IMG/VR virus record: IMGVR_UViG_3300045971_000895
Coordinates: 1 to 64,000 of that record
DNA from: a virus
Length of the DNA stretch: 64,000 bases
Direction: 5' to 3' (one strand)
Made by a program: the position numbers and the translations under genes. Positions 10,405 through 55,300 of this stretch are shown here, piece by piece. Numbering within the stretch: position 1 is the stretch's first letter; every line of letters begins with the position of its first letter. The notes under the pieces are model-generated. The model ran no database searches and was not told where the DNA came from. It was given only the letters and a program-made list of their open reading frames with translations.

Positions 10405-10905
10405 CTATGTGCGCTTGCGCTTGAGTGGTTTTGCCGTGAGCCTCTTCGTCTTCTTTGGCTTCACGGCTTCGGGAGCTGCCGCGACCGGGCGCTCTCGTGC
10501 TGCACGAAGAAGGCGAGCCTCACCACGGAGGCGCTCCACCTTCTCTTTCTGCTTGTCGGCGTACTTCTGCGCGCGGGTGCGCTCCTTCTCCGTCGTGGCG
10601 TCGGCCAGCTTCTTCTCCTGCACCGAAGCCCAGTACTCGGCCGCCTTGGCCTGCTTCTCGAGGGACTCTGCGGTCACCTTCCCTCGGATCTTCCCCTTCC
10701 CCCACAGGGAGAGCAGGGAAGTGAACACCTTGCTCTCCGCGCGCTTCGCCAGGTCGTCCGCCACGATGGCAGATTCGGCATCGAGGATGCGGTCGATGGC
10801 CTCGAGGTGCCTGACCTCGAGGATGCTCTTGTCGGTACCGTACTCTTCCAGCATCGCGTGAATCTTCTGCTGGGAGTTGAGGTGGACCTCTTGTACTGGG
10901 GTCAT
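10405..10905 (-). CDS. hypothetical protein with a basic C-terminal tail
   Basis: 166-aa ORF. Confidence 0.5.
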   Translation of the reverse strand: MTPVQEVHLNSQQKIHAMLEEYGTDKSILEVRHLEAIDRILDAESAIVADDLAKRAESKVFTSLLSLWGKGKIRGKVTAESLEKQAKAAEYWASVQEKKLADATTEKERTRAQKYADKQKEKVERLRGEARLLRAARERPVAAAPEAVKPKKTKRLTAKPLKRKRT

Positions 10906-11228
10906 CTCGTCTTCGACGACCGCTTGGGGTCGTACTTGGCCTGAAGACGCTCTACGTCGCCGTCGAGTGCCTTGAGCGTGGAGCGAACCCAGCTGCTGAG
11001 GCTTCCCTTCGTTTCGTCGTAGGACTCGAGGGCATCGACGAGAAGCTTGTTGGCGGCTTCCCGGATATCGCTCTCCCGGACGCCGCGCGCCCGGAAGTTG
11101 TACTGATTGATCTCGAGGTCGACGAGCGGCTTCAGCGCCAGCTTCAACATCTCAAGGGTGACGAGAAGATCCGGCTTCCTCTTCCACTCCATGAGCAGAG
11201 TACTCACTGCCTGATCGGATGCATCCAT
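10902..11228 (-). CDS. hypothetical protein (weak ECF sigma region-2-like pattern)
   Basis: 108 aa. LLVDALESYDETKGSLSSWVRSTL resembles sigma region 2.2-2.3. Confidence 0.4.
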   Translation of the reverse strand: MDASDQAVSTLLMEWKRKPDLLVTLEMLKLALKPLVDLEINQYNFRARGVRESDIREAANKLLVDALESYDETKGSLSSWVRSTLKALDGDVERLQAKYDPKRSSKTR

Positions 11229-11232
11229 CTAC

Positions 11233-11505
11233 TCACCTGTTGCCCTTCTTCTGGGTAGAGATGTGTGGGCCCTTCCTGAACTTGATGTTGCTCTTCTCGA
11301 CTTGCAGGTCAATCCCGAAAGAGTCTGCGACCTCTTCGAGGTACTGATAGTAGGCGGGGTCGTCGAGACAGGTTGCCTCCTTCCAGGCCCAGCGTATGTA
11401 GCCCGGATCATTCGTCGCAACCTGCTCGACAGTTTCCCCTTCGTGCTTGCGACCGCCGAACGTCCAGTTCTCACTGCCGTCCTTCGGGCGCCGCAGGAGT
11501 GACAT
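11233..11505 (-). CDS. DUF3820-like small protein
   Basis: FGGRKHEGETVEQV...DPGYIRWA pattern. Confidence 0.5.
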   Translation of the reverse strand: MSLLRRPKDGSENWTFGGRKHEGETVEQVATNDPGYIRWAWKEATCLDDPAYYQYLEEVADSFGIDLQVEKSNIKFRKGPHISTQKKGNR

Positions 11506-11517
11506 TGTGATTCCTCT

Positions 11518-11889
11518 CTAGGCCTGTGGGTGCCTCGCCGCATAGCGGCCAGCCTTCAGGCCTTGTGTGTACAGATCGGCTTCGTCCTTCTTCAGGACGC
11601 GCCACTGGTGCTCGGGGTACTGCTCTCGCATGTTGCGGACGATGTCGTAGGCCTCGTCTTGCCCTTTGACCGGAGGGAGGTGTGGCCAGGTTCGCCAGAT
11701 GCCACCCAACTCCTTCGACTGCACGACGTAGTAGAGGTTGTCTCGTATGAGTTTGAGCGCGGCCTCTAGCTTCAGCGGTTTCTTCTTCATCGCAGCTCCA
11801 GTGTTGCTGTCTCTCCTTGGTGCTATGATCCTCGTGAGCCTGACGCTGCACCTAGCAGTACCCGGAAGGGCTCCGAAGAACCCTGACAA
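11518..11889 (-). CDS. hypothetical protein
   Basis: 123-aa ORF. Confidence 0.5.
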   Translation of the reverse strand: MSGFFGALPGTARCSVRLTRIIAPRRDSNTGAAMKKKPLKLEAALKLIRDNLYYVVQSKELGGIWRTWPHLPPVKGQDEAYDIVRNMREQYPEHQWRVLKKDEADLYTQGLKAGRYAARHPQA

Positions 11890-12059
11890 TGCCTTCGGGC
11901 CTACGGGGCACGGAAGCGCCGGCGAACGAGGATGACGTGGTGTGGTAGCGGCTCAGAACCTGGCACTACTGGCGGTCGGAAGATCGGTGAGAGATTGCGC
12001 CGCACCGACCGTCAGCACCCAGGTTTTGGGCGAAGGGCGAAGCTGAGCCCTCTACTCCC

Positions 12060-12503
12060 TTATGCCTCAACCCGGAGCTGATTCGCTGCGACGGAGTTGG
12101 CGGGGTTCTGGAACCACTGTGCCATGTGCAGGTCGTACCGGTACATGTGGTCGGCCATCCAGGCGGACATGAAGTTGCCCATCCTGACGATGAGGGGCTT
12201 GTTGTCTCCCTCGACCCTGTACTCGTCGGCCAGCTTGTTGAACGTGGCCGCCATCTGCTGGTGCTGTATCAGGTGCGCGAGGATGAGTGGGTAGCCGGTC
12301 CTTCGCATGGCGGCTTCCTCGTCCTGGAAGTGCTCGGTGACGAGGTAGCCCATCAGGTCGAGGTACTCGACGACGTGCTTGTGTGCCACGTCTCTACGCA
12401 CCGCATCGACGAGTTTCTCTAGACCGGCCAGCAGCTGCTCATGCGCCTGGTCGATCTTGGGAACGCCTGTGCGGACTCGGTCTTCAAGAATGAAGATGGC
12501 CAT
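12060..12503 (-). CDS. bacteriohemerythrin-like protein
   Basis: Hemerythrin His/Glu ligand pattern: IDQAHEQL, HFQDEE...H..H, WMADHMYRYD. Confidence 0.65.
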   Translation of the reverse strand: MAIFILEDRVRTGVPKIDQAHEQLLAGLEKLVDAVRRDVAHKHVVEYLDLMGYLVTEHFQDEEAAMRRTGYPLILAHLIQHQQMAATFNKLADEYRVEGDNKPLIVRMGNFMSAWMADHMYRYDLHMAQWFQNPANSVAANQLRVEA

Positions 12504-12620
12504 GGGAGGAGTCTAACCACTTTCGTTGTCGCTTGGGGAGGGTGTCTTGGGCCAGCTCCCCCTTGTACCGAAGTACACTAACAAGTTGACGTACATCCAC
12601 GAGGTATGGTTCCGTGCCAC
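12504..12620. promoter_or_regulatory. divergent intergenic switch region between the minus early block and the plus block
   Basis: 117-bp gap between divergent genes, containing TTGACG. No confident -10 box identified. Confidence 0.3.
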
Positions 12621-12929
12621 ATGAGCGAGGTTCCATACGTCAGCACGTCCATCGCCCTCCAAGTCGCTGAGTGGGAACGTCGCTTCGAGCGGCTTCCTTC
12701 GAGCTCAGGGCTCCTCTTCGTCAGCATCACGCCCAAGCCCGGCATCGGTGGGTTCGTCCATGAGTTCGACCTCCTCCTCGGCTTCAACAAAGAACTCGCA
12801 GACGTCGGGCTCTCCCTTGCGAAGCACGTCCTCGCAGAAGAGATCGAGAAGTTCGCCATCAACGTCCGCGTCGCACGAGGCCTCGCCTGTGCCAGCGCTC
12901 GTTCAGGTTCTGGTGGCGATCCGGGTTAG
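12606..12929 (+). CDS. hypothetical protein
   Basis: High-GC3 ORF immediately upstream of the XRE gene. Confidence 0.4.
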   Translation: MVPCHMSEVPYVSTSIALQVAEWERRFERLPSSSGLLFVSITPKPGIGGFVHEFDLLLGFNKELADVGLSLAKHVLAEEIEKFAINVRVARGLACASARSGSGGDPG

Positions 12930-12933
12930 CAGG

Positions 12934-13098
12934 ATGACTGCGGTCGAGGCAGCCGCTCGCATGGGCGTCAGCCGGCAGCAGATCTGGAACATCGAGAACG
13001 CCATCCAAGGGCCGCCTTCCGTCACCACGTTGGAGCGCTACGCTCGAGCGGTGGGGGCCAAGGTGGTCGTGAAGCGCCTCTCTGCTCTTCCCCGTTGA
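12934..13098 (+). CDS. XRE-family helix-turn-helix regulator (Cro/CI-like)
   Basis: MTAVEAAARMGVSRQQIWNIENAIQGPPSVTTLERYARAVG is a canonical HTH_XRE. Trimmed to ATG 12934. Confidence 0.6.
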   Translation: MTAVEAAARMGVSRQQIWNIENAIQGPPSVTTLERYARAVGAKVVVKRLSALPR

Positions 13099-13133
13099 CT
13101 CTTCCCATCGACGGGGGTACATCGTCTGTACAC

Positions 13134-13478
13134 ATGGCGGACTTCTTCAACGACGGTGGCCGCAACCCGCTCATCATTCCTGGGCAGGTGCAGCCTGCCG
13201 GCCCGACCTGCCCCCACTGCCACGTGGGCGGAGAGTGGACGGCTCGCAGGATTCAGGGCGTCGCTCACTTCACCTGCAAGAAGTGCAACGGGAAGTGGGA
13301 GGGCGGCCTTCCGCAGGAGCCGCAGGATCCCCGCGTGCCGCTGCCCACCACCAGCTACATCCCCCCGGTCCGCATCGGCAAGGACTCCAAGGGACAGGAC
13401 GTCGAGATCCGAAGGCGCATCGACACCCGCACCGACTTCAGAAAGGGCGGCTTGATACCGCCCGAAGGAGAAGAGTGA
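13134..13478 (+). CDS. zinc-ribbon protein
   Basis: CPHC...CKKC; ATG 13134. Confidence 0.45.
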   Translation: MADFFNDGGRNPLIIPGQVQPAGPTCPHCHVGGEWTARRIQGVAHFTCKKCNGKWEGGLPQEPQDPRVPLPTTSYIPPVRIGKDSKGQDVEIRRRIDTRTDFRKGGLIPPEGEE

Positions 13479-14311
13479 TGGCAGAGAACGAAGGGCCTGT
13501 GGTCTTCGGTGGCAAGGAGCTCGACCCGGATCAGGAGGCGAAGTACAGGTCCCAGATCGCCGAGGCACGCAAGGGCGGGGTCTCCTCGCTGAAGGGTGGC
13601 GACCCGGTCGGCATCGCTCCCAAGGTCGCCATCCCGGTGGGTCAGCGCCCCGTCACTCGCGCGCCAGGGGAAGGCGTGACGCCGCGGCCTCCCGGCTCGC
13701 CGCTCCTCTCGCCAGAGACCGCGCAGCAGCTCCAGGACCTCGCGGCCGCTCAGGTGGCGCAGGCTGCCACCGCCAAGGTCGAGGAGAAGAAGGCCGAAGA
13801 GAAGAAGGTCGAGGAGAGCCTCTTCGATGCCTTCGACTTCGACGGCCGCAACGAGGCCGAGAAGGTCCTCAACAACAAGAAGCGCCGCAAGGAGATCGAG
13901 GATCGCTGCGAGCCCATGAAGCTCGAGGACCTCATCATGCGGGACGAGGTTCAGCAGGTGGTCCAGATCGTCCCGGGCAAGTTCGATGTCACCTACCGCT
14001 CGATGACCCCGGACGACAACCTCTACATCAAGCGGTACATCTCCAAGCACGACACCGGGCAGAGCGACCAGTACGTGCTGGAGAAGTTCGGCATGTGCCA
14101 GCTCACCTGCACGGTCGTCTCCATCAACGGTCGGGCGCTGCCCGAGTACCGCAAGGCTGATGGAGACGTGGACGACGAGCTCTTCGAGAAGAAGCTGAAG
14201 ATGCTCCTCAAGAAGAGCGCCTACGTCGTGGCCGACCTCGGCATCAACTACAGCTGGTTCGACATCAGGGTGAGGAAGCTCCTCAACCCGGACTCCTTGG
14301 GAAATGGCTAA
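13478..14311 (+). CDS. hypothetical protein (277 aa)
   Basis: ATG preceded by GAAGGAGAAG; TGATG overlap with the upstream gene. Confidence 0.6.
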   Translation: MAENEGPVVFGGKELDPDQEAKYRSQIAEARKGGVSSLKGGDPVGIAPKVAIPVGQRPVTRAPGEGVTPRPPGSPLLSPETAQQLQDLAAAQVAQAATAKVEEKKAEEKKVEESLFDAFDFDGRNEAEKVLNNKKRRKEIEDRCEPMKLEDLIMRDEVQQVVQIVPGKFDVTYRSMTPDDNLYIKRYISKHDTGQSDQYVLEKFGMCQLTCTVVSINGRALPEYRKADGDVDDELFEKKLKMLLKKSAYVVADLGINYSWFDIRVRKLLNPDSLGNG

Positions 14312-21129: not shown

Positions 21130-21149
21130 CTGCCGCCTACACTCTCGTC

Positions 21150-21668
21150 ATGAACAAGCTCGCCTTCCACTCGATGATGCTGAAGCTGGCCTTCAAGCTC
21201 AACCCCCAGGGGAAGGCCGAGGTCAAGGCCGAGTCCCACTTCTCGGCTGAGAAGCCGAACTGGGATGGCTTCGTGAAGAACCTGAAGAGCACCAACTTCA
21301 GGAAGGCCATCCTCGGCGCCGAGCAGGCCGACCCGAAGCTGAAGAAGTACGTGAAGAACTTCGGCGGCTACGTCTCCTCGAAGGACGAGCTGGCCCGCAT
21401 CAAGTCGAAGGACTCCGGCAAGACGTACATCGTGAAGGACCTCCACAGCGGTCGCTGGGGCTGCAACTGCGGGGACTGGCAGTACATCCACTCGGTCAAG
21501 GGCGGGGACTGCAAGCACATCAAGTCCGTCAAGAAGTCGAAGCTGGTGAAGGCTGCCTCGCTCACCACCGCAGCTCAGGGATTCGCTGCGGTGACCCGTG
21601 CCGTGCGCCAGAGGGAGAAGGGCCTCCAGGCGAAGCAGACGGTGAAGGCGTTCAACGCTCCACGATGA
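21150..21668 (+). CDS. SWIM zinc-finger protein
   Basis: GRWGCNCGDWQYIHSVKGGDCKHI matches the SWIM CxCx(n)CxH motif. Confidence 0.5.
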   Translation: MNKLAFHSMMLKLAFKLNPQGKAEVKAESHFSAEKPNWDGFVKNLKSTNFRKAILGAEQADPKLKKYVKNFGGYVSSKDELARIKSKDSGKTYIVKDLHSGRWGCNCGDWQYIHSVKGGDCKHIKSVKKSKLVKAASLTTAAQGFAAVTRAVRQREKGLQAKQTVKAFNAPR

Positions 21669-23264: not shown

Positions 23265-24332
23265 CTACTCGATGTCGATGACGCGGCCGAACTGGCCCGC
23301 ACGCACCGACCGAATGCCAGCCTGCTTCGCAGTCTCATCCACCGCCAGTTCGGACATCGCGGCAAGGAGACTGCGAACCTCGTCCGTGGAGTGATTCACC
23401 TGCTCCGCGGTGAGCTGCCAGTCGGTCTCTCCATTCCCGCCCTGCTTCAAGAACCGGGCGCGGATGGACTTAATCGTGTCCTCGAAGGTTGAGGTCCCCG
23501 AGAAGTTGACCGCCGAGAAGGTCTCGAAGGCCTCGAAGAGAGGCCGGAGGTTCTTGGGGTTCAGCTTGCCGTTGGTCTCGAGCAACCTCTTGGCCTGCGA
23601 GGCTGCCTCTCCGAGCTGCTGATGCATCATGACGGAGACTTCGCTCACCCAGTGGTTGAGGTCCCGTCGCACCCTGTTCTGCTCAGCGAGCAGCGTCTCA
23701 GCATCCAGGGTGGACATCGACTCCACGCCCTCGAGCGGCGTCATCTTGAACATGCGCCACTCGAAGTTGTAGCGGCTGCGCAGGTGCGAGACGTCCGGGT
23801 ACAGGGTGCGGTTGATGGCCTCCTGCTGCTTCACCCAGATGTCGAGCTCCTTCACCTTCGCTGCGTACGCGTAGGGGGCGACCTTGTTGGCCTCCTTCTC
23901 CGCGATGTTGCGTGCCTGCTGGGTGAGCTTCTCGAGCTGCTCCTCCTTGAAGCGAGGGTAGCCCGCGATGAGGTCGTCCACGGCGACATCCCACTGCGCC
24001 TTGAACTCCTGGAGTCTCCGCAGTACCTCGCGCAGCGCGTGGTAGGAGACGTACTTCGCATTCCCGATTGGGAACGGGACGGAGCGGTTGTCGAGGAACC
24101 TCCGCGCATGCCCCTCGATGAACTGGAGACGCTCTTGTGCCTGACGCGGCAGGAGCTTCTTGTGCCCGATGTAGAAGGCACTCTTGTCGACCTCGTCGAT
24201 GAGGAGGTCGCTCTCGTTCATCTTCTTGTTCGCGGTCCAGCGACCGATGTAGAGATGAAACAGCGTACCGGTATCAAAGAGAACGCGGGTGATGCCGCTC
24301 TCCTGCCGGACGGACACAGGAGGGTTGGGCAC
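23265..24332 (-). CDS. hypothetical protein (DUF3150-like?)
   Basis: 355-aa ORF; last gene of the AAA cassette. Confidence 0.55.
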   Translation of the reverse strand: MPNPPVSVRQESGITRVLFDTGTLFHLYIGRWTANKKMNESDLLIDEVDKSAFYIGHKKLLPRQAQERLQFIEGHARRFLDNRSVPFPIGNAKYVSYHALREVLRRLQEFKAQWDVAVDDLIAGYPRFKEEQLEKLTQQARNIAEKEANKVAPYAYAAKVKELDIWVKQQEAINRTLYPDVSHLRSRYNFEWRMFKMTPLEGVESMSTLDAETLLAEQNRVRRDLNHWVSEVSVMMHQQLGEAASQAKRLLETNGKLNPKNLRPLFEAFETFSAVNFSGTSTFEDTIKSIRARFLKQGGNGETDWQLTAEQVNHSTDEVRSLLAAMSELAVDETAKQAGIRSVRAGQFGRVIDIE

Positions 24333-24333
24333 C

Positions 24334-24537
24334 CTACCCCCCGGTGTGCGAGTGGTCGTGCGACTCGATCTTCTGGCTGCCCTCGGGCTTCATGTCGCGC
24401 TTCTCCACCTTGCCGAGAGCGTCCTCGAGGGACTTGGTCTCCGCGAGGCAGGCGTTGCCCACGAAGCCGCGGGTCGGCTCGGCCTTGACCGTTCCGTCCT
24501 TGGCGATGGTGACCTTGATCTCCTTCAACGTTGCCAT
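24334..24537 (-). CDS. DUF2997-like small protein
   Basis: MATLKEIKVTIAKDGTVKAE...GNACLAETKSLEDALG matches the DUF2997 pattern (MxxIEIxIxPDGxV...G..C...T..LE.ALG). Confidence 0.5.
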   Translation of the reverse strand: MATLKEIKVTIAKDGTVKAEPTRGFVGNACLAETKSLEDALGKVEKRDMKPEGSQKIESHDHSHTGG

Positions 24538-24546
24538 GCTTCCTCC

Positions 24547-25101
24547 TTACAGCGTGATCACTCGGCCATGCCGAATGCGGGTGTCGTTGCGCTGCGCTGC
24601 CTGAACGTCTTCGTCGGAAGCCAGGCGCCGGCGCGGGCCGGTCTGCGCGGGGGCTCCGGCGTCCATCTTCTCGAGCTCCTCACCGGCGCGGAAGCGCCGC
24701 ATGATCCCGGCCACCTCGCTCTGGATGAGGTCGAGGTGCTTGCAGTGCCGGGGCTTGGGCAGCCCGGTCTCCTTGTCCTTGCGCTGGAAGACCCAACCCA
24801 TGCAGTTGCAGCGCAGGGTTCCGTCTTCCTCGAGGCGCGTCTCGTAGTTCACGATGAAGCCGCCCCTGGGCTGGCTCGATGCAAAGGCCCAGGTGTAGAC
24901 CGGCTCCCCGTACTCTCTCTTGGCAGGGTCGCTGTTGGTGGTGTCCCTGCCAGTCCTGACACTGCGGCGTGGCATGTTGATCTTCCTCCTCTGGCGTGAG
25001 GGGAGAGGAGCCGGCACCTCCTCTTCGAAGGGCCGGACCCTCTCCTCGTAGAGCCGGTGCGAGAGGTCGGCGATCTGGTCGATCACTCGCCTTCTCGGCA
25101 T
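24547..25101 (-). CDS. SWIM zinc-finger protein
   Basis: LRCNCMGWVFQ...RHCKHL follows the CxCx(n)CxH pattern. Confidence 0.5.
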   Translation of the reverse strand: MPRRRVIDQIADLSHRLYEERVRPFEEEVPAPLPSRQRRKINMPRRSVRTGRDTTNSDPAKREYGEPVYTWAFASSQPRGGFIVNYETRLEEDGTLRCNCMGWVFQRKDKETGLPKPRHCKHLDLIQSEVAGIMRRFRAGEELEKMDAGAPAQTGPRRRLASDEDVQAAQRNDTRIRHGRVITL

Positions 25102-25105
25102 GGCT

Positions 25106-25531
25106 CTACCCGTAGCGCTGCGCCGTGAGCTCGATCTCGCCGGTCTTCAGGACCTGGCGCTGCACCTGGTAGCCCTTGGCCTGGAGCTGGCCAGTGGACA
25201 CCTTCTCGGCGTAGTACTGCGCGACGAGATTCTGGTGCTCCTGCGGGAAGCCATCCATGTCGACGTGGACGTCGTACCCGCCCTCCTTGTTGCGCTCGTA
25301 GCCCAGGTCGTTGGACGCCACGTAGCGGCCGAGCTTCTCGCCCTGCGCCGCCTTGCGGACCACGATGTTGGCCTTGAGGTTCGCCTTCTGCCCAGCGTAG
25401 TTGAGGAGGTCCACCTTCTTGTCCCCATGGGACTCGACCTTGCCCTCACCGAAGTGCTGGACCAGCGCTGCCACCAGCTCAGCCTCGAACTTCTGCTGCG
25501 CCTGGATGTTCAAACGAACGTAGTGGGACAC
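25106..25531 (-). CDS. DUF1257 (Ycf35)-like protein
   Basis: Begins MSHYVRLNIQ, like the characteristic MSHF.xI start; about 140 aa. Confidence 0.5.
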   Translation of the reverse strand: MSHYVRLNIQAQQKFEAELVAALVQHFGEGKVESHGDKKVDLLNYAGQKANLKANIVVRKAAQGEKLGRYVASNDLGYERNKEGGYDVHVDMDGFPQEHQNLVAQYYAEKVSTGQLQAKGYQVQRQVLKTGEIELTAQRYG

Positions 25532-25577
25532 TGCATTCTCCTTTCGTGAGACATCAACCTACTGCGAGGGTACGACA

Positions 25578-27173
25578 TCAGGCGTCGATGCGACGACCAG
25601 CGACGCCCATCTGGGCCTGGACGGAGACCTCCTTGCGGTTGGCGGGGCGGGTGCGCGCAGCGCACCAGTTGCGGAGGAGCTGGAGCCTCTCCAGCATCGT
25701 CTTGGCGATCGGCTGCGTGGAATCGAAGGCCTCCTGGAGGTCCACGGAGTTGAGGTCCCTGTTGTTGTGGTAGGCGACCCGCATGGCCTGCTCGATAGCT
25801 CCGTCGATCTCTGCGCCGGTGAAGTCCTTGCTGGTCTCGCCGGCGAAGTGGTCGAGGTCGATCTTGGCGGGAGTGCCACCGACGTGCTGGTAGAGCGCTT
25901 CCCGGTTGCGGCGCTTGATGTGAATCATGAGGATCTCCCTCCGCTCCTTCTTGGTCGGAAGGTCGATGGAGAACATCTCGTCGAAGCGGCCCTTGCGGAG
26001 GAGCTCCGGGGGCAGCATCGTCACATCGTTGGCGGTGGCTACCACGAAGACCGGGCTGGTCTTCTCCTGCATCCAGGTGAGCAGCGTGCCGAGCACGCGT
26101 GCCGAGACGCCAGAGTCACCGTGACCACCTGAGGCACCTGCGGCCCCCTTCTCGATCTCGTCGAGCCAGAGGACGCAGGGGGACATCGCTTCCGCGAGGC
26201 GAATGGCCATGCGGATGTTGGCCTCGGAGGAGCCGACGAGGGACTGGTAGAGCTTGCCCATGTCGAGCTTCAGCAGCGGCTTGCCCAGCGCGGCCGCGGC
26301 CACCTTCGAGAAGAGCGACTTGCCGGTGCCAGGAGGACCGACCAGCAGAACGCCCTTGGGGTACGCCAGGCCGAAGTCGAGCGCCTCCTTCGTGAAGGCG
26401 CGCTGGAGCGGCCGCACCCAGTCCTTCAGCTCCTCCATGCCGCCGATGACCTCGAGGCCCGCCGGGACATCGCGGATGTACTCGAGCAGCTGGCTCTTGC
26501 GGAGCGCGAAGCACTTCTCCCGGATGACGATGGCCGGGTCCCACAGGTCCTCGAGCTTCCGCTTCCCCTGCTTCCGGGGCTCGATGATGGACAGCGTGAA
26601 GGCGTTCTCGGCTTCCTGCGTGGTGAGCCCCTTGGCAGCGTCGATGAGGAGCTTCTTGCGATCTGCATCGGGACGCTTGTCGGCGGCGATGCCGGAAGCC
26701 TCGAAGATGCCGTCCAGCACCGCGGTGAGGCTCTCCTCGTCCGGGAGCGGAGCCTCGAGCAGCGTGATCTCCTTCTCGACCTCCGGCGGCAGGACGACGA
26801 CTGGCGAGAGGATGATGATCATCTTCCTCGTCAGCTTCATCTCGGGGATGACGTCCAGGAGCAGCGCCTGCACGTTGAGGTCCGGGAGGAAGTGGTGGAA
26901 CTGGCGAAGGACCAGGATGGAGTCCTGTGGCAGGTCCTTGATCTTCTCCAGGGCTGTGGTGGGCATCCCGGTTCCCTGGAGGGGAGCCGTGGTGCGCCTG
27001 GAGTCCTCGATGATGCCCTTGTTGATGGTCCAGAAGAACATCTTGCGCTTCAGGACGTCCGCCGCCTGGCGGATCTCCCGCAGCGTTCTCTGGTCCTCGA
27101 GGCTCTGGAGGTAGATGGCGGCGTAGCCCGCCTTCCCTCGCACCTCAAGCAAGTCGATCAGCTTCTCGGTCAT
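25578..27173 (-). CDS. AAA+ ATPase (classical clade, CDC48/FtsH-like module)
   Basis: Walker A GPPGTGKS. Walker B VLWLDEIE. Second region of homology [19 protein letters not shown]. About 250-aa unknown N-terminal domain. Confidence 0.85.
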
Positions 27174-52351: not shown

Positions 52352-55300
52352 GTGGCACTCCGAATCCCGAAGTTCATCCAGGACTTGCTCAACGTCCCCA
52401 CCGGGGCGCCGAACCATTACCTGCGATGGGATCCTCTGGCGAAGGAGATCATCAACGACCCCGGAGTCGGCGGTGGCAGCGTCGGCCCCACTGGGCCACA
52501 AGGTCCGACCGGTCCCCCGGGGTACATCGGACTGGATGGCGCGACTGGGCCAATGGGTCCGGCCGGCGTCACGGGACCACGGGGCGCCACGGGGGTCGGT
52601 GCATCGGACCCCAAGGTGCTCATGGTCGCGAAGGCGGGGGCGCCGTTCACCTCCGTGAAGGCCGCGGTCGACTCCATCCTCGACGCTTCTTCGACCAACC
52701 TCTACGTCGTCGAGGTCGGCCCCGGGGTCTACACCGAAGCGCCTTTCACCATTCCTGCCTACGTCACGGTGAAGGGGGTCGGCACTTGGACCTCCGTCGT
52801 TCTTGAGACGAGCGACAACAACAATCACTTCATCTCGCTCTCTGCCAACGGCACGCTGTCCCACGCGTCTCTGGTCGGGCCCACAGGTGTCGGGTTCGCC
52901 GCCATCGACTACACCTCCCCGGGCTTCTCTCCAGGCCTCCTCTACCACCTGGTCATCAAGAAGGGGTACTACGGCATCTGGGTCCACCCGTCATCGTACG
53001 GCACGCTTCATGCGCACGAGGTGGTGAACCAGTACGCCGGCTCGCCGATCCAAGAGTTCATCCGAGCCTCCGGCGCCGGCAACGCAACGCTGCTCTCGTG
53101 CTCGTACATGGCGGGCCCTCCAAGCTCTGTCATCAAGGGCTTTGTCGCAGACGGCGCCGCCACCATCACCATGGATGTGTGCGCGTTCCGTTGTTCGGGA
53201 GCAACGGACGCCGTCTTCGTCGACAACGGTGGCAAGGTCCGACTCAACGCGTGCACCATCTCCGATGCAGTCAACGCCCTGCACATCGGAGCGAACGGGA
53301 CCGGCTCCTCGATCATTGGAGCCGGCTGCGTCATCGGCGACGCCGTCACGACGGACATCTTCATCGAGTCGGCCTCTGGATCGGTCGAGTACGGCGGGCG
53401 GGCTGATCGCGCCAAGATGCTCAACCCGGCCAACGGCTCTCTGCACGGGTCGTTCTCTTCTTTGGCTTCTGGCACGACGGTCTGGGGCGAGCTCTTCCTG
53501 GGCTCGGCCACACAGGACTTCCCGCTCTCCGAGTTCGCCACCTCCAACCGGCAGACGGCGCTGTACCAAGGAGGCGCCGTCACTCGCGGCGCAGGGCGGA
53601 ACCTGGACATCTCTGCGGGCAAGGGCTTCGTCGTCGTCGGCACCACGATGGTGGCCGTGACGTGGGGTGCCACGACGCTGACAGTCCCCGCGGGCGTGGA
53701 GCGCCACGTCGTTGTCGACCAGGCCGGGGTGGTCTCGTTGGCGGTGACGGAACCGAACCCGCGCAACGTCATCGTGTTGGCCGAGGCGGTGGCGAACGCG
53801 ACGACCGTCTACTTCCTCACGAACTACCCGGTCTACATCCCGAACAACCTGGCCTCCCTCCAAGCGTACCTGCTCGAGGTGATCGGCCCGATGAACTACA
53901 CGGGCGGCGACGTCACGAAGCACGCCGCCACCTCTCTTCAGCTCGACGTCTCGGCGTCCGAGTACTACCTGGCGCTGCTGGAGAAGATCTCTGCGCCAGC
54001 GTCCATCGCCAACTTCACGGCGATGTACCGGGACGGCGCCGGAGGGTGGACGACGGTTGCCGGCCAGAGCTCCATCGACACCAGCCTCTACGACAACGGA
54101 ACCGGAACGCTCGCTCCGATTCCTGCGAATCTCTTCAAGCGCGACCTCCTCTTCGTCAACGTCAACGACGTCGGCACCGAGTTCTTCCTGGTCTACGGAC
54201 AGGAGACCTTCGACAACTTCGACCTCGCCCTCAACAATCCACTGTCTCCGTCCTTCCTCGAGACGCTGGCGTGTCGCTTGGCGGGCATCGTGGTCGCACA
54301 GGGGGCGAGCGACATCTCCCTCATCGTCGACCAGCGGCCGCACATTGGTCAGCTCTCGACGGCGGTCTCTGGCCAGCCAGGGCCTCAGGGTGTGACGGGA
54401 GCGACGGGGCCTCAGGGCCCAGCTGGGCCGACAGGTCTTCAGGGCCCGACGGGCAGCCAGGGTTTGACCGGGCCTCAGGGAGTCACCGGGGTCACCGGGC
54501 CGGCAGGCCCGCAAGGCCCCACCGGTGCCGCCATCACCGGCGCGCTGGGCCCCACCGGGGCCCGCGGCGCCACGGGGGTGACTGGGGCGGCAGGCCCGGC
54601 CGGCTCTACGGGAGCGACTGGGCCTGCGGGCTCGCAGGGAGCGACTGGCGCGACGGGCCCCACCGGCCCACAAGGAGCACAGGGACCAACCGGAGCGGCC
54701 ATCACTGGAGCGCAAGGCCCGACAGGGGCTCGTGGCGCTACCGGTGCCACCGGTCCGATGGGCCCGGGCAGTCCTTCGGCGGGCCCACAAGGTTCTCCTG
54801 GTGCGACCGGCCCGGCCGGTCCGCAGGGTGTCACTGGGGCTACCGGCCCCACAGGGCCAGCAGGCGCGACAGGGGCCGCGATCACTGGCGCGGTGGGGCC
54901 GACGGGTGCAGTCGGGCCGACCGGGGATCATGGCGTCGACGGAGTGACGGGCGCCACCGGACCTCAGGGCCCTCAGGGCGTCACTGGCGCGACTGGGCCT
55001 CAGGGAGCTCAGGGAGTGACCGGGGCCACCGGACCTACCGGCGCCCGCGGCGCCACAGGCATCACCGGTGCTACCGGCCCCACGGGGGCCGTCGGTCCGC
55101 AGGGAACCACGGGTGCCACCGGGCCGCTGGGGCCTCAGGGGCCGACAGGGGCTGCCATCACCGGGGCGCAGGGGCCGCAGGGCGTGACGGGTGCCACAGG
55201 GCCTGTGGGCCCTGCTGGGGCGACGGGCGCAGCCATCACGGGGGCACAGGGACCGACGGGCGCTCAAGGGCCGCAGGGAGCCACAGGCGTGACGGGCCCG

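Follow-up and report, generated by a model that had tools for sequence, protein, structure and literature searches.

The question raised by the locus described here is what connects five neighbouring genes of a virus. They are located between positions 23,265 and 27,173 of a stretch of 64,000 nucleotides (positions 1 to 64,000 of the IMG/VR virus record IMGVR_UViG_3300045971_000895, hereafter called the window) and encode an AAA+ ATPase, a DUF1257 (Ycf35-like) protein, a SWIM-like protein, a DUF2997 protein and a protein of 355 residues. A preliminary description made from the sequence alone had presented them as a conserved cassette that could be either a remodelling or unfoldase machine acting on nucleoprotein or an anti-defence module. 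We observe that the module is real, that it is widely conserved in phages and that its members are functionally linked around a Ycf46-type AAA+ ATPase. Three features had been overlooked: the 355-residue protein, which had been left unnamed, is DUF3150-like, the module comprises additional members, and the ATPase and several of its partners end in a common short C-terminal peptide, called here the tail.

The five genes are co-oriented and tightly spaced, as had been noticed, with intergenic gaps of 46, 4, 9 and 1 nt from the ATPase gene to the DUF3150-like gene. Their GC content is 0.86-0.96 at the third codon position against 0.30-0.49 at the second one, which in a genome of about 63% GC (value of the window) characterizes typical coding sequences. 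No consensus of a sigma-70 promoter or of a terminator was found inside the cassette.

The tail displays the consensus R-x-[IV]-[DET]-[ILVA], followed by zero to three acidic residues. Among the 421 open reading frames (ORFs) of at least 50 residues detected in the six frames of the window, only four end in this motif, all of them module genes (Table 1), and it is found in none of the approximately 340 other-frame ORFs. The codons of the tail residues Arg, Ile and Val vary synonymously between genes and between genomes. The tail is therefore conserved at the peptide level, and this variation rules out DNA-level conservation as its cause. A strict motif, [KR]x[IVLM][DE][IVLFMAY]x0-3$, was scored over the unique C-termini encoded in the viral loci, where the module also includes the families P121 and SLOG/DprA-like (see below). 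It is present in 24 of 86 ATPases, 11 of 37 DUF3150-like proteins, 4 of 9 SWIM-like proteins and 5 of 6 SLOG/DprA-like orthologues, is absent from the DUF1257 (0/34), DUF2997 (0/24) and P121 (0/19) proteins, and terminates 19 of the 2418 other genes (0.8%). With a relaxed motif, the other genes reach 46/2418, which is near chance (39/2418 and 27/2418 for two control motifs).

The same four families (ATPase, DUF3150, SWIM and SLOG) bear the tail in independent loci, and none of the approximately 35 other genes per locus does. The tails are for instance ARLIELDDD, RAVDV.., YGRVIEI and FQRYIEL in locus L017, and RRVIEI, GRNVEA, YGRLIEL and FKRLIEV in locus L019. In an unbiased set of full-length DUF3150 representatives, the strict motif was recovered in 26 of 38 close members and 14 of 97 distant ones (none with the reversed control), and most of the members lacking it show an obvious variant of the tail. 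The tail arginine, R350 in the protein of the window, is one of five residues that are invariant in 26 diverse DUF3150 members.

Within a genome, the tails of non-homologous proteins co-vary. The DUF3150-like and SWIM-like proteins end respectively in VRAILLD and LRAILLD in L133, VRRILID and IRRILID in L153, and VRAVVLD and VRAVVLN in L175 (the ATPase was not compared in these three loci). Where there is no SWIM-like protein, the DUF3150-like protein and the ATPase end in PRRRV[MLV]P. and R[RK][RK][VI]AAPS in the L139 group, in EYFRK[LI]S and MRKLSIAIG in the L135 group, and in SRASMLEL and SRAATLDL in L008. With a score that uses no regular expression, the similarity of the ATPase and DUF3150-like tails is 12.8 within the same genome versus 9.1 across genomes (p<=5e-5, n=35) and that of the DUF3150-like and SWIM-like tails 21.4 versus 10.6 (p<=5e-5, n=8), the significance of both values coming from a permutation that ignores the relatedness of the genomes. 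No co-variation was observed in a control window located 35-45 residues from the C-terminus (p=0.07 and 0.62, respectively). The ATPase and at least one neighbour share a co-varying [KR]-x-hydrophobic-x-hydrophobic C-terminus, which is what we understand by a tail-tagged module. That non-homologous proteins converge on one peptide is most simply explained by a shared binding site with which the tails co-evolve. As an identity for the tail, the bacterial beta-clamp-binding motif (QL[SD]LF) was also considered and set aside, because its Gln and terminal Phe are mostly missing and because the tails co-vary by lineage.

The tail is not restricted to phages. Cyanobacterial and proteobacterial Ycf46-type proteins stop at a W..R.RPA[NSD] block and are tail-less, and in the few bacterial genomes whose ATPase has a tail, its neighbours include tail-bearing or DUF2997 proteins. 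Outside phages, the tail system is seen most clearly in L026, from a rumen metagenome-assembled genome (JAFXYZ010000014.1). Its ATPase ends in GGRTLDF and is followed by a DUF2997 gene, and directly upstream are six tandem paralogues (3534-7323) that all end in ERN[LIV]D[IL], five of them with an N-terminal transmembrane segment; the three that were scanned contain a ComEA-like HHH_3 (helix-hairpin-helix) domain. The ATPase of L066 (Amycolatopsis) ends in GRTIDV and an HHH_3 protein of the same locus in VRQLDI, while in L021 these C-termini are LRQMELA for the ATPase and LIQLEID for a neighbour.

The ATPase of the window was recognized by Pfam (PF00004, E=4.5e-30, residues 275-404) and matches phrog_8638 over its full length (1e-127). 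The closest solved relatives of its AAA domain are the D2 domains of VCP/p97/Cdc48 (E=3e-52). An alignment of 13 phage lineages reveals that the Walker A motif (GPPGTGKS), the Walker B motif, the arginine fingers and the pore loop (SLVG) are intact; pore loop 1 is [SG]-[LI]-V-G across the lineages, and is thus aliphatic and not aromatic. Judged by these motifs, the protein is a classical-clade AAA+ ATPase with one AAA domain predicted to be active. The N-domain without assigned function, for which about 250 residues had been proposed, is confirmed: it measures about 230-250 residues, is conserved from residues ~10 to ~225 and is kept in all 13 lineages. At the other end of the protein, a family-specific helix ending in RTRPAN is followed by a linker and by the tail.

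Full-length relatives of this ATPase (residues ~9-512, 33-43% identity) were detected by tblastn in one genome per prokaryotic species. They come from many cyanobacteria, such as Prochlorococcus, Fischerella, Microcoleus and Tolypothrix, as well as from proteobacteria, planctomycetes, actinobacteria and a Methanococcoides. Independently of this survey, a relative with 95% identity exists. Full-length homology, including the N-domain and the W..R.RPA helix, assigns the protein to the Ycf46-type family. The loci of these relatives are unannotated, and their ycf46 label was deduced from the organism, the architecture and the description in the literature, where Ycf46 appears only as a KaiC-interacting, stress-induced ATPase without known mechanism. 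The cellular form stops at the conserved C-terminal block, whereas the protein of the window has an extension of 19 residues ending in GRRIDA. As this extension is missing from the cyanobacterial and proteobacterial members, the ATPase of the window is considered as a phage-type variant.

The Pfam scan also supported the DUF1257 and DUF2997 assignments of the preliminary description. The DUF1257 protein scores 30.7 bits with PF06868 (cut-off 22.2), a match precomputed for 17 of its 21 homologues, and contains conserved His residues. The DUF2997 protein scores 52.4 bits with PF11211 (cut-off 24.1, profile positions 1-45 of 47) and matches phrog_23133; it has a conserved G..G..C motif with a single conserved Cys, and no structural relative was found in the PDB. 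The 355-residue protein scores 44.3 bits with DUF3150 (PF11348, cut-off 24.9), the alignment being limited to profile positions 5-165 of 257. Searched by tblastn, neither PLSDB plasmids nor GenBank phages gave a match, and the protein is therefore regarded as a divergent, phage-specific branch. An exhaustive HMMER search detected 490 DUF3150-like clusters among 1.84e9 representatives.

The SWIM zinc finger proposed earlier was missed by the databases and is supported by other means. The protein has no Pfam match at E<=0.1 and none in PHROG, NCBIfam or PADLOC, none of 29 homologues has a precomputed Pfam SWIM match (PF04434), and tblastn found nothing in GenBank phages or PLSDB plasmids. However, 30 homologues share C98-N-C100 and C120-K-H122 without exception, together with the tail arginine R180, and the family profile aligns across the CxC…CxH core with a second, Pfam-positive SWIM protein of the window (hhalign, E=7.4e-5). 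An AlphaFold model built from 30 sequences (predicted local distance difference test, pLDDT, of 78-93 in the core) has the third strand finishing in the CxC and the helix opening with the CxH, i.e. the SWIM signature CxCxnCxH in a beta-beta-beta-alpha layout. Alignment and model together support the prediction of a SWIM-type zinc knuckle. The protein is composed of a variable N-terminus, a conserved core (residues ~65-145), a disordered linker and the tail, which in the model (pLDDT <50) is predicted to be disordered and unpacked against its own domain.

Two side observations concern this family. The gene of the second SWIM protein belongs to the rightward block, where it immediately precedes the lysis genes. 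The linkers of the family members P0016, P0018, P0020 and P0004 contain a stretch, 'TGRLSS..PN.(Q/S)N.P', resembling a conserved motif of family-A DNA polymerases (P0016 has a precomputed PF00476 match), and residues ~155-170 of the window protein retain a degenerate trace of it, RRRLASDEDV. This stretch could represent mimicry or the remnant of a polymerase fragment.

The conservation of the neighbourhood was quantified in 93 non-redundant viral loci, by counting the partners within 10 kb of the ATPase gene. DUF2997 is the most frequent (47/93), followed by DUF1257 (42/93), DUF3150 (37/93), P121 (24/93, always on the strand of the ATPase gene), SWIM (10/93), and SLOG/DprA-like proteins and a family called X (6/93 each). 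No partner gene is on the opposite strand (0/172). The ATPase, DUF1257 and DUF2997 genes, said earlier to travel together in phages, do so in 36 loci; DUF3150 is added in 21 of them and all five genes are present in seven. SWIM behaves as the accessory component that had been supposed, and every SWIM-family locus has the cassette. A search seeded with DUF3150 found the ATPase gene in seven of eight viral loci. The gene order is shuffled between viral lineages, which points to functional linkage rather than inherited synteny. Among IMG/VR and metagenome contigs, the five genes keep the order of the window in L006, L015, L017, L019 and L182, and since this order recurs in relatives whose ATPases are only 47-56% identical, the grouping is far beyond chance. 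Sequenced phages include no close relative at the DNA level, and any DNA similarity, near or distant, is limited to a stretch of 159 nt of the ATPase gene in cluster-O mycobacteriophages. In the phages RHph_I4 (Rhizobium), HJ05 (Aeromonas) and JP1 (Agrobacterium), the ATPase gene is followed by X (~210-240 residues), DUF1257 (all starting with MSH), DUF2997 and P121 (~120 residues), and directly after this module come initiator-like, DnaB and PolA genes.

Co-occurrence in cyanobacteria, which had also been put forward, holds for the small proteins and much less for the ATPase. The published cyanobacterial cluster DUF2997-DUF1257(ycf35)-fed7 does not include the ATPase (PMC4284462), and a DUF1257 gene following the gene of the Ycf46-type ATPase was found in only three cyanobacterial loci (L041, L052 and L073). 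Within 8 kb of the ATPase gene, no partner was found in 67 of the 80 cellular loci.

The module extends beyond the interval first delimited, since P121 and SLOG/DprA-like genes belong to it. Both are kept upstream in all close relatives of the window, and the SLOG/DprA-like gene is located 2-4 kb upstream of the ATPase gene in every SWIM-clade locus. The SLOG ORF extends to 31701; its homologues and the Pfam match begin at the Met at 31503. The P121 protein has no Pfam match, and over 22 residues its N-terminal hairpin is similar to DUF2997 (hhalign, E=3.6e-4). As proposed earlier, the cassette belongs to a DNA-metabolism block, of which it forms the 3' end: ligase-like, ResIII helicase, class II ribonucleotide reductase and SLOG/DprA-like genes lie upstream, and this leftward block ends convergent with a GH108 endolysin gene.

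Table 1. Position of the module genes, of their tails and of other features in the window.
Feature	Positions	Strand	Length (residues)	Remarks
AAA+ ATPase gene	25578-27173	minus	531	
ATPase tail G-R-R-I-D-A	25581-25598	minus		
DUF1257 (Ycf35-like) gene	25106-25531	minus	141	starts with MSHY; conserved N-terminal M-S-H; no tail
SWIM-like gene	24547-25101	minus	184	
SWIM-like tail G-R-V-I-T-L	24550-24567	minus		
DUF2997 gene	24334-24537	minus	67	no tail
DUF3150-like gene	23265-24332	minus	355	final gene of the leftward block
DUF3150-like tail G-R-V-I-D-I-E	23268-23288	minus		
P121 family gene	28339-28893	minus	184	tail-less; outside the interval first flagged; ad hoc hidden Markov model (HMM)
YpsA-SLOG/DprA-like gene	30289-31503	minus		PF06908 6e-15, PF02481 5e-9
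SLOG/DprA-like tail GRIIDIED	end of 30289-31503 gene	minus		
Second SWIM protein	21141-21668	plus	175	PF04434 20.1 bits, cut-off 19.6; tail-less
Major Vault Protein (MVP) homologue	5201-7840	minus	879	MVP_shoulder 6.8e-28, Vault_3 1.5e-9
Protein matching PHROG transposase family	2152-3096	minus	314	phrog_10081, 1.8e-16
Collagen-like protein	52352-56953	plus	1,533	hundreds of Gly-X-Y repeats
Glycosyltransferase-methyltransferase-glycosyltransferase fusion	57028-60213	plus	1,061	with TPR repeats
B12-binding radical SAM protein	61199-62836	plus		

The reading that we prefer, with a probability of roughly 0.4, is that proteins dock through the tail to the ATPase complex, which would remodel them while phage DNA is replicated and recombined. 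The ATPase, presumably hexameric, would engage and thread its substrates, with DUF1257, DUF2997 and often P121 as constant, tail-less cofactors. The ATPase and the lineage-variable partners (DUF3150-like, SWIM-like and SLOG/DprA-like proteins in the window, ComEA-type helix-hairpin-helix proteins and the X family in other genomes) would each present a short peptide on a disordered linker, and this peptide would act as a docking signal bringing the partners to one common site. A candidate site is the pocket of the AAA ring usually filled by the ATPase's own tail, which the partners would mimic as in p97/VCP; the DUF1257 and DUF2997 cofactors are alternative receptors. The site in the AAA ring is favoured because ATPases from loci lacking the DUF cofactors still have a tail. 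Through ATP hydrolysis, the partners would then be loaded on phage DNA, remodelled there or recycled, the SLOG/DprA-like, SWIM-like and helix-hairpin-helix proteins being predicted DNA binders. The tail itself may tentatively be seen as an address label that is portable and co-evolves, and that sets which proteins dock to a Ycf46-type AAA+ machine, encoded by phages and occasionally by bacteria. The remodelling of nucleoprotein suggested in the preliminary description is compatible with the findings and is retained here, the mechanism being one that we infer.

Several points weigh against this reading, besides the permutation scheme mentioned above. Approximately one third of the viral loci have a tail-bearing ATPase and no DUF partners, including those of the cluster-O mycobacteriophages (tail KVRVLDL), so that the DUF cofactors are not universal; these loci have another conserved neighbour of ~280 residues, ending in FGFEL, MTFEL or ELEIE. 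In loci that contain partners, the strict motif fails to capture many ATPase tails, which are basic or longer variants, and the gene calls and the HMMs of the partners were ad hoc. DUF3150 and X are not among the predicted DNA binders, and SWIM domains can mediate protein contacts too. The modelled fold of DUF1257 (pLDDT 92) offers no functional clue, structure comparison having given no informative relative. Finally, that the N-domain would be a degenerate AAA-like module without Walker motifs is no more than a suggestion, drawn from two weak matches in the same register, one with the AAA domain of the same protein (hhalign, P=0.015) and one with the clamp-loader subunit RFC5 (E=0.3).

The ATPase and its small cofactors might instead unfold or strip host immune proteins, the tail-bearing proteins being adaptors for different host targets. 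The variable, lineage-specific set of partners and their shuffled order are reminiscent of conflict systems, and anti-defence genes are found near some loci, such as the Acb2/Tad1-hairpin gene (anti-CBASS/Thoeris sponge-like) of L017 (19815-20033), located in a convergent block ~8 kb from the cassette. The AAA domain also resembles IetA (2e-23) and TRIP13 (1.5e-7) in PADLOC. This similarity is nevertheless confined to the generic AAA domain, and the NCBIfam IteA score is 75 (4.5e-21) for a cut-off of 510. PADLOC found no IetS serine protease among the cassette proteins, which excludes membership of IetAS, and HORMA is absent too. Moreover, the module is part of a replication and recombination block and directly precedes the replisome genes in RHph_I4, HJ05 and JP1, and the homologous ATPase and DUF1257 genes are housekeeping genes in cyanobacteria and plastids. 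The anti-defence role put forward earlier thus finds no support, and we regard counter-defence as unlikely.

A function in redox, Fe-S or radical-enzyme maturation has a different basis. Here DUF1257 and DUF2997 would work alongside partners of the ferredoxin-like or radical-SAM kind, with the ATPase as an activase or chaperone, for example of ribonucleotide reductase. This agrees with the conserved cyanobacterial cluster that contains fed7 (PMC4284462), with the G..G..C motif of DUF2997 and the conserved His of DUF1257, and with the class II ribonucleotide reductase and the B12-radical SAM protein encoded in the window. NrdG-like 4Fe-4S/radical-SAM activase genes adjoin the ATPase gene in three unrelated lineages (L008, 4438-5091; L012/13, 9084-9716 in L012; L066, 9676-10377), the call resting on a Fer4_12 match of 8e-31 in L066 and on inspection by eye in L008 and L012. 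But Fer4_12 and ferredoxin genes are missing from the vicinity of the module in most loci, DUF2997 has a single conserved Cys, and a tail shared by the ATPase and the DprA-like, SWIM and helix-hairpin-helix proteins is left unexplained, which makes such a function improbable.

The tail could also be a degron or a timing signal, by which a protease or unfoldase of the host or of the phage turns over the tail-bearing proteins, ATPase included, during infection. Hydrophobic or charged peptides at the C-terminus, borne by a disordered linker, are typical degrons (ssrA, or the C-terminus of MuA for ClpX), which the tail resembles; it is predicted to be free in the model, and the ATPase is itself an unfoldase-type enzyme. 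We give little credit to this explanation. The tail is also borne by the ATPase, none of the loci examined links a peptidase to the module, and the receptor suggested by the lineage-specific co-variation of the tails is a co-evolving one encoded by the phage, rather than a conserved protease of the host.

Least credible is that the tail addresses proteins to a phage-built structure, as cargo of a shell made of the MVP homologue or for packaging into the virion: shared C-terminal cargo peptides are known from encapsulins, and MVP genes occur in the window and in L007 (12841-15396, plus strand, 851 residues, between DUF2997 and DUF3150; also L101), but MVP was found near the module in these loci only, tblastn detects it in GenBank phages only in three uncultured megaphages, and it is absent from the complete Corndog-like, RHph_I4, HJ05 and JP1 genomes with a tail-bearing ATPase, so that an MVP shell is rejected as the general receptor. 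A 2023 preprint (10.1101/2023.11.10.566534) described phage MVPs without mentioning the DUF2997 and DUF3150 neighbours.

Other genes were noted in the course of the analysis. In the DUF-less lineages L112 (12458-12799) and L127 (12448-12792), the neighbour of ~280 residues is followed by a conserved protein of ~113 residues with the motif M.CDT…SHDGG[RK]T[FW]H.GH, which has no Pfam match. An ENA contig bearing P0013 contains, between DUF2997 and DUF3150, a pair of rIIA-like (HATPase_c_3, 839 residues) and rIIB-like (PF26926) genes (10896-14181). Concerning the window itself, the collagen-like protein, probably a fibre protein, accounts for a stretch of 75% GC at 54-56 kb, and the glycosyltransferase fusion and the B12-binding radical SAM protein may form a modification cluster. 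The remaining entry of Table 1 is the protein matching a transposase family.

The DUF families were already known, and existing annotations show AAA, DUF1257 and DUF2997 occurring together. Full-text literature searches found no functional study of the module and no mention of the tail. The proteins Ycf46, Ycf35 (DUF1257) and DUF2997, kept in lineages from cyanobacteria to plastids, also occur in many phages, all without a mechanism. The phage versions make this problem tractable, since the ATPase and its cofactors form an operon and the likely partners are marked by a peptide. Testable predictions follow on which proteins bind, via which peptide and at which site. If the preferred reading is true, the tail would represent an unrecognised short-linear-motif system spanning hundreds of phage lineages, with partners that mimic the regulatory tail of the ATPase, and the tails of a genome would predict the partners of its ATPase. 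It would also give a first experimental handle on the Ycf46, Ycf35 and DUF2997 proteins of cyanobacteria and plastids, and the module may turn out to be an accessory machine that is widespread among phages and serves DNA replication or recombination. If tail mimicry holds, it would be a natural, partner-driven control of an AAA+ ring through the pocket of the ATPase's own tail, known so far only as a pharmacological effect on human VCP.

Among known systems, the nearest are the Ycf46 and Ycf35 proteins of cyanobacteria and red-lineage plastids. The phage ATPase is homologous to the cyanobacterial proteins over its full length, N-domain included (35-39% identity), the DUF1257 and DUF2997 families are common to both, and the ATPase gene is followed by DUF1257 in L041, L052 and L073. 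Contrary to the phage ATPase, cellular Ycf46 ends without a tail at its W..R.RPA block, is mostly not beside DUF1257 or DUF2997, and has no DUF3150, SWIM or SLOG partners. IetAS and CBASS-TRIP13 share a similar AAA domain, whereas the phage module has another N-domain, no IetS protease or HORMA, and a phage replication context. Vps4 binds the C-terminal MIM motifs of ESCRT-III through its MIT domain, and ClpX binds the XB tail of SspB through its N-domain; in both cases, as proposed here, several proteins, paralogous or not related otherwise, are tethered to an AAA+ unfoldase by a short C-terminal peptide. No sequence relationship was detected, and their motifs and receptor domains are different, with an ATPase that does not carry the motif itself.

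As for p97/VCP/Cdc48, its D2 is the closest solved AAA domain, and its architecture in two tiers would be shared if the N-domain is a degenerate AAA, for which the indications are weak. The phage protein differs by its one active AAA domain and by the absence of a p97-type N domain and of ubiquitin-related cofactors, and partners copying the ATPase's own tail are not a described feature of p97. The disordered tail of VCP (Arg766-x-Phe768) docks on the neighbouring D2 and is partly autoinhibitory, and a ligand mimicking it activates the enzyme (PMC11181084). Like VCP, the phage ATPase has a C-terminal tail with an Arg-x-hydrophobic element, and the kind of system to which the module would correspond is an AAA+ remodeller with peptide-tethered partners.

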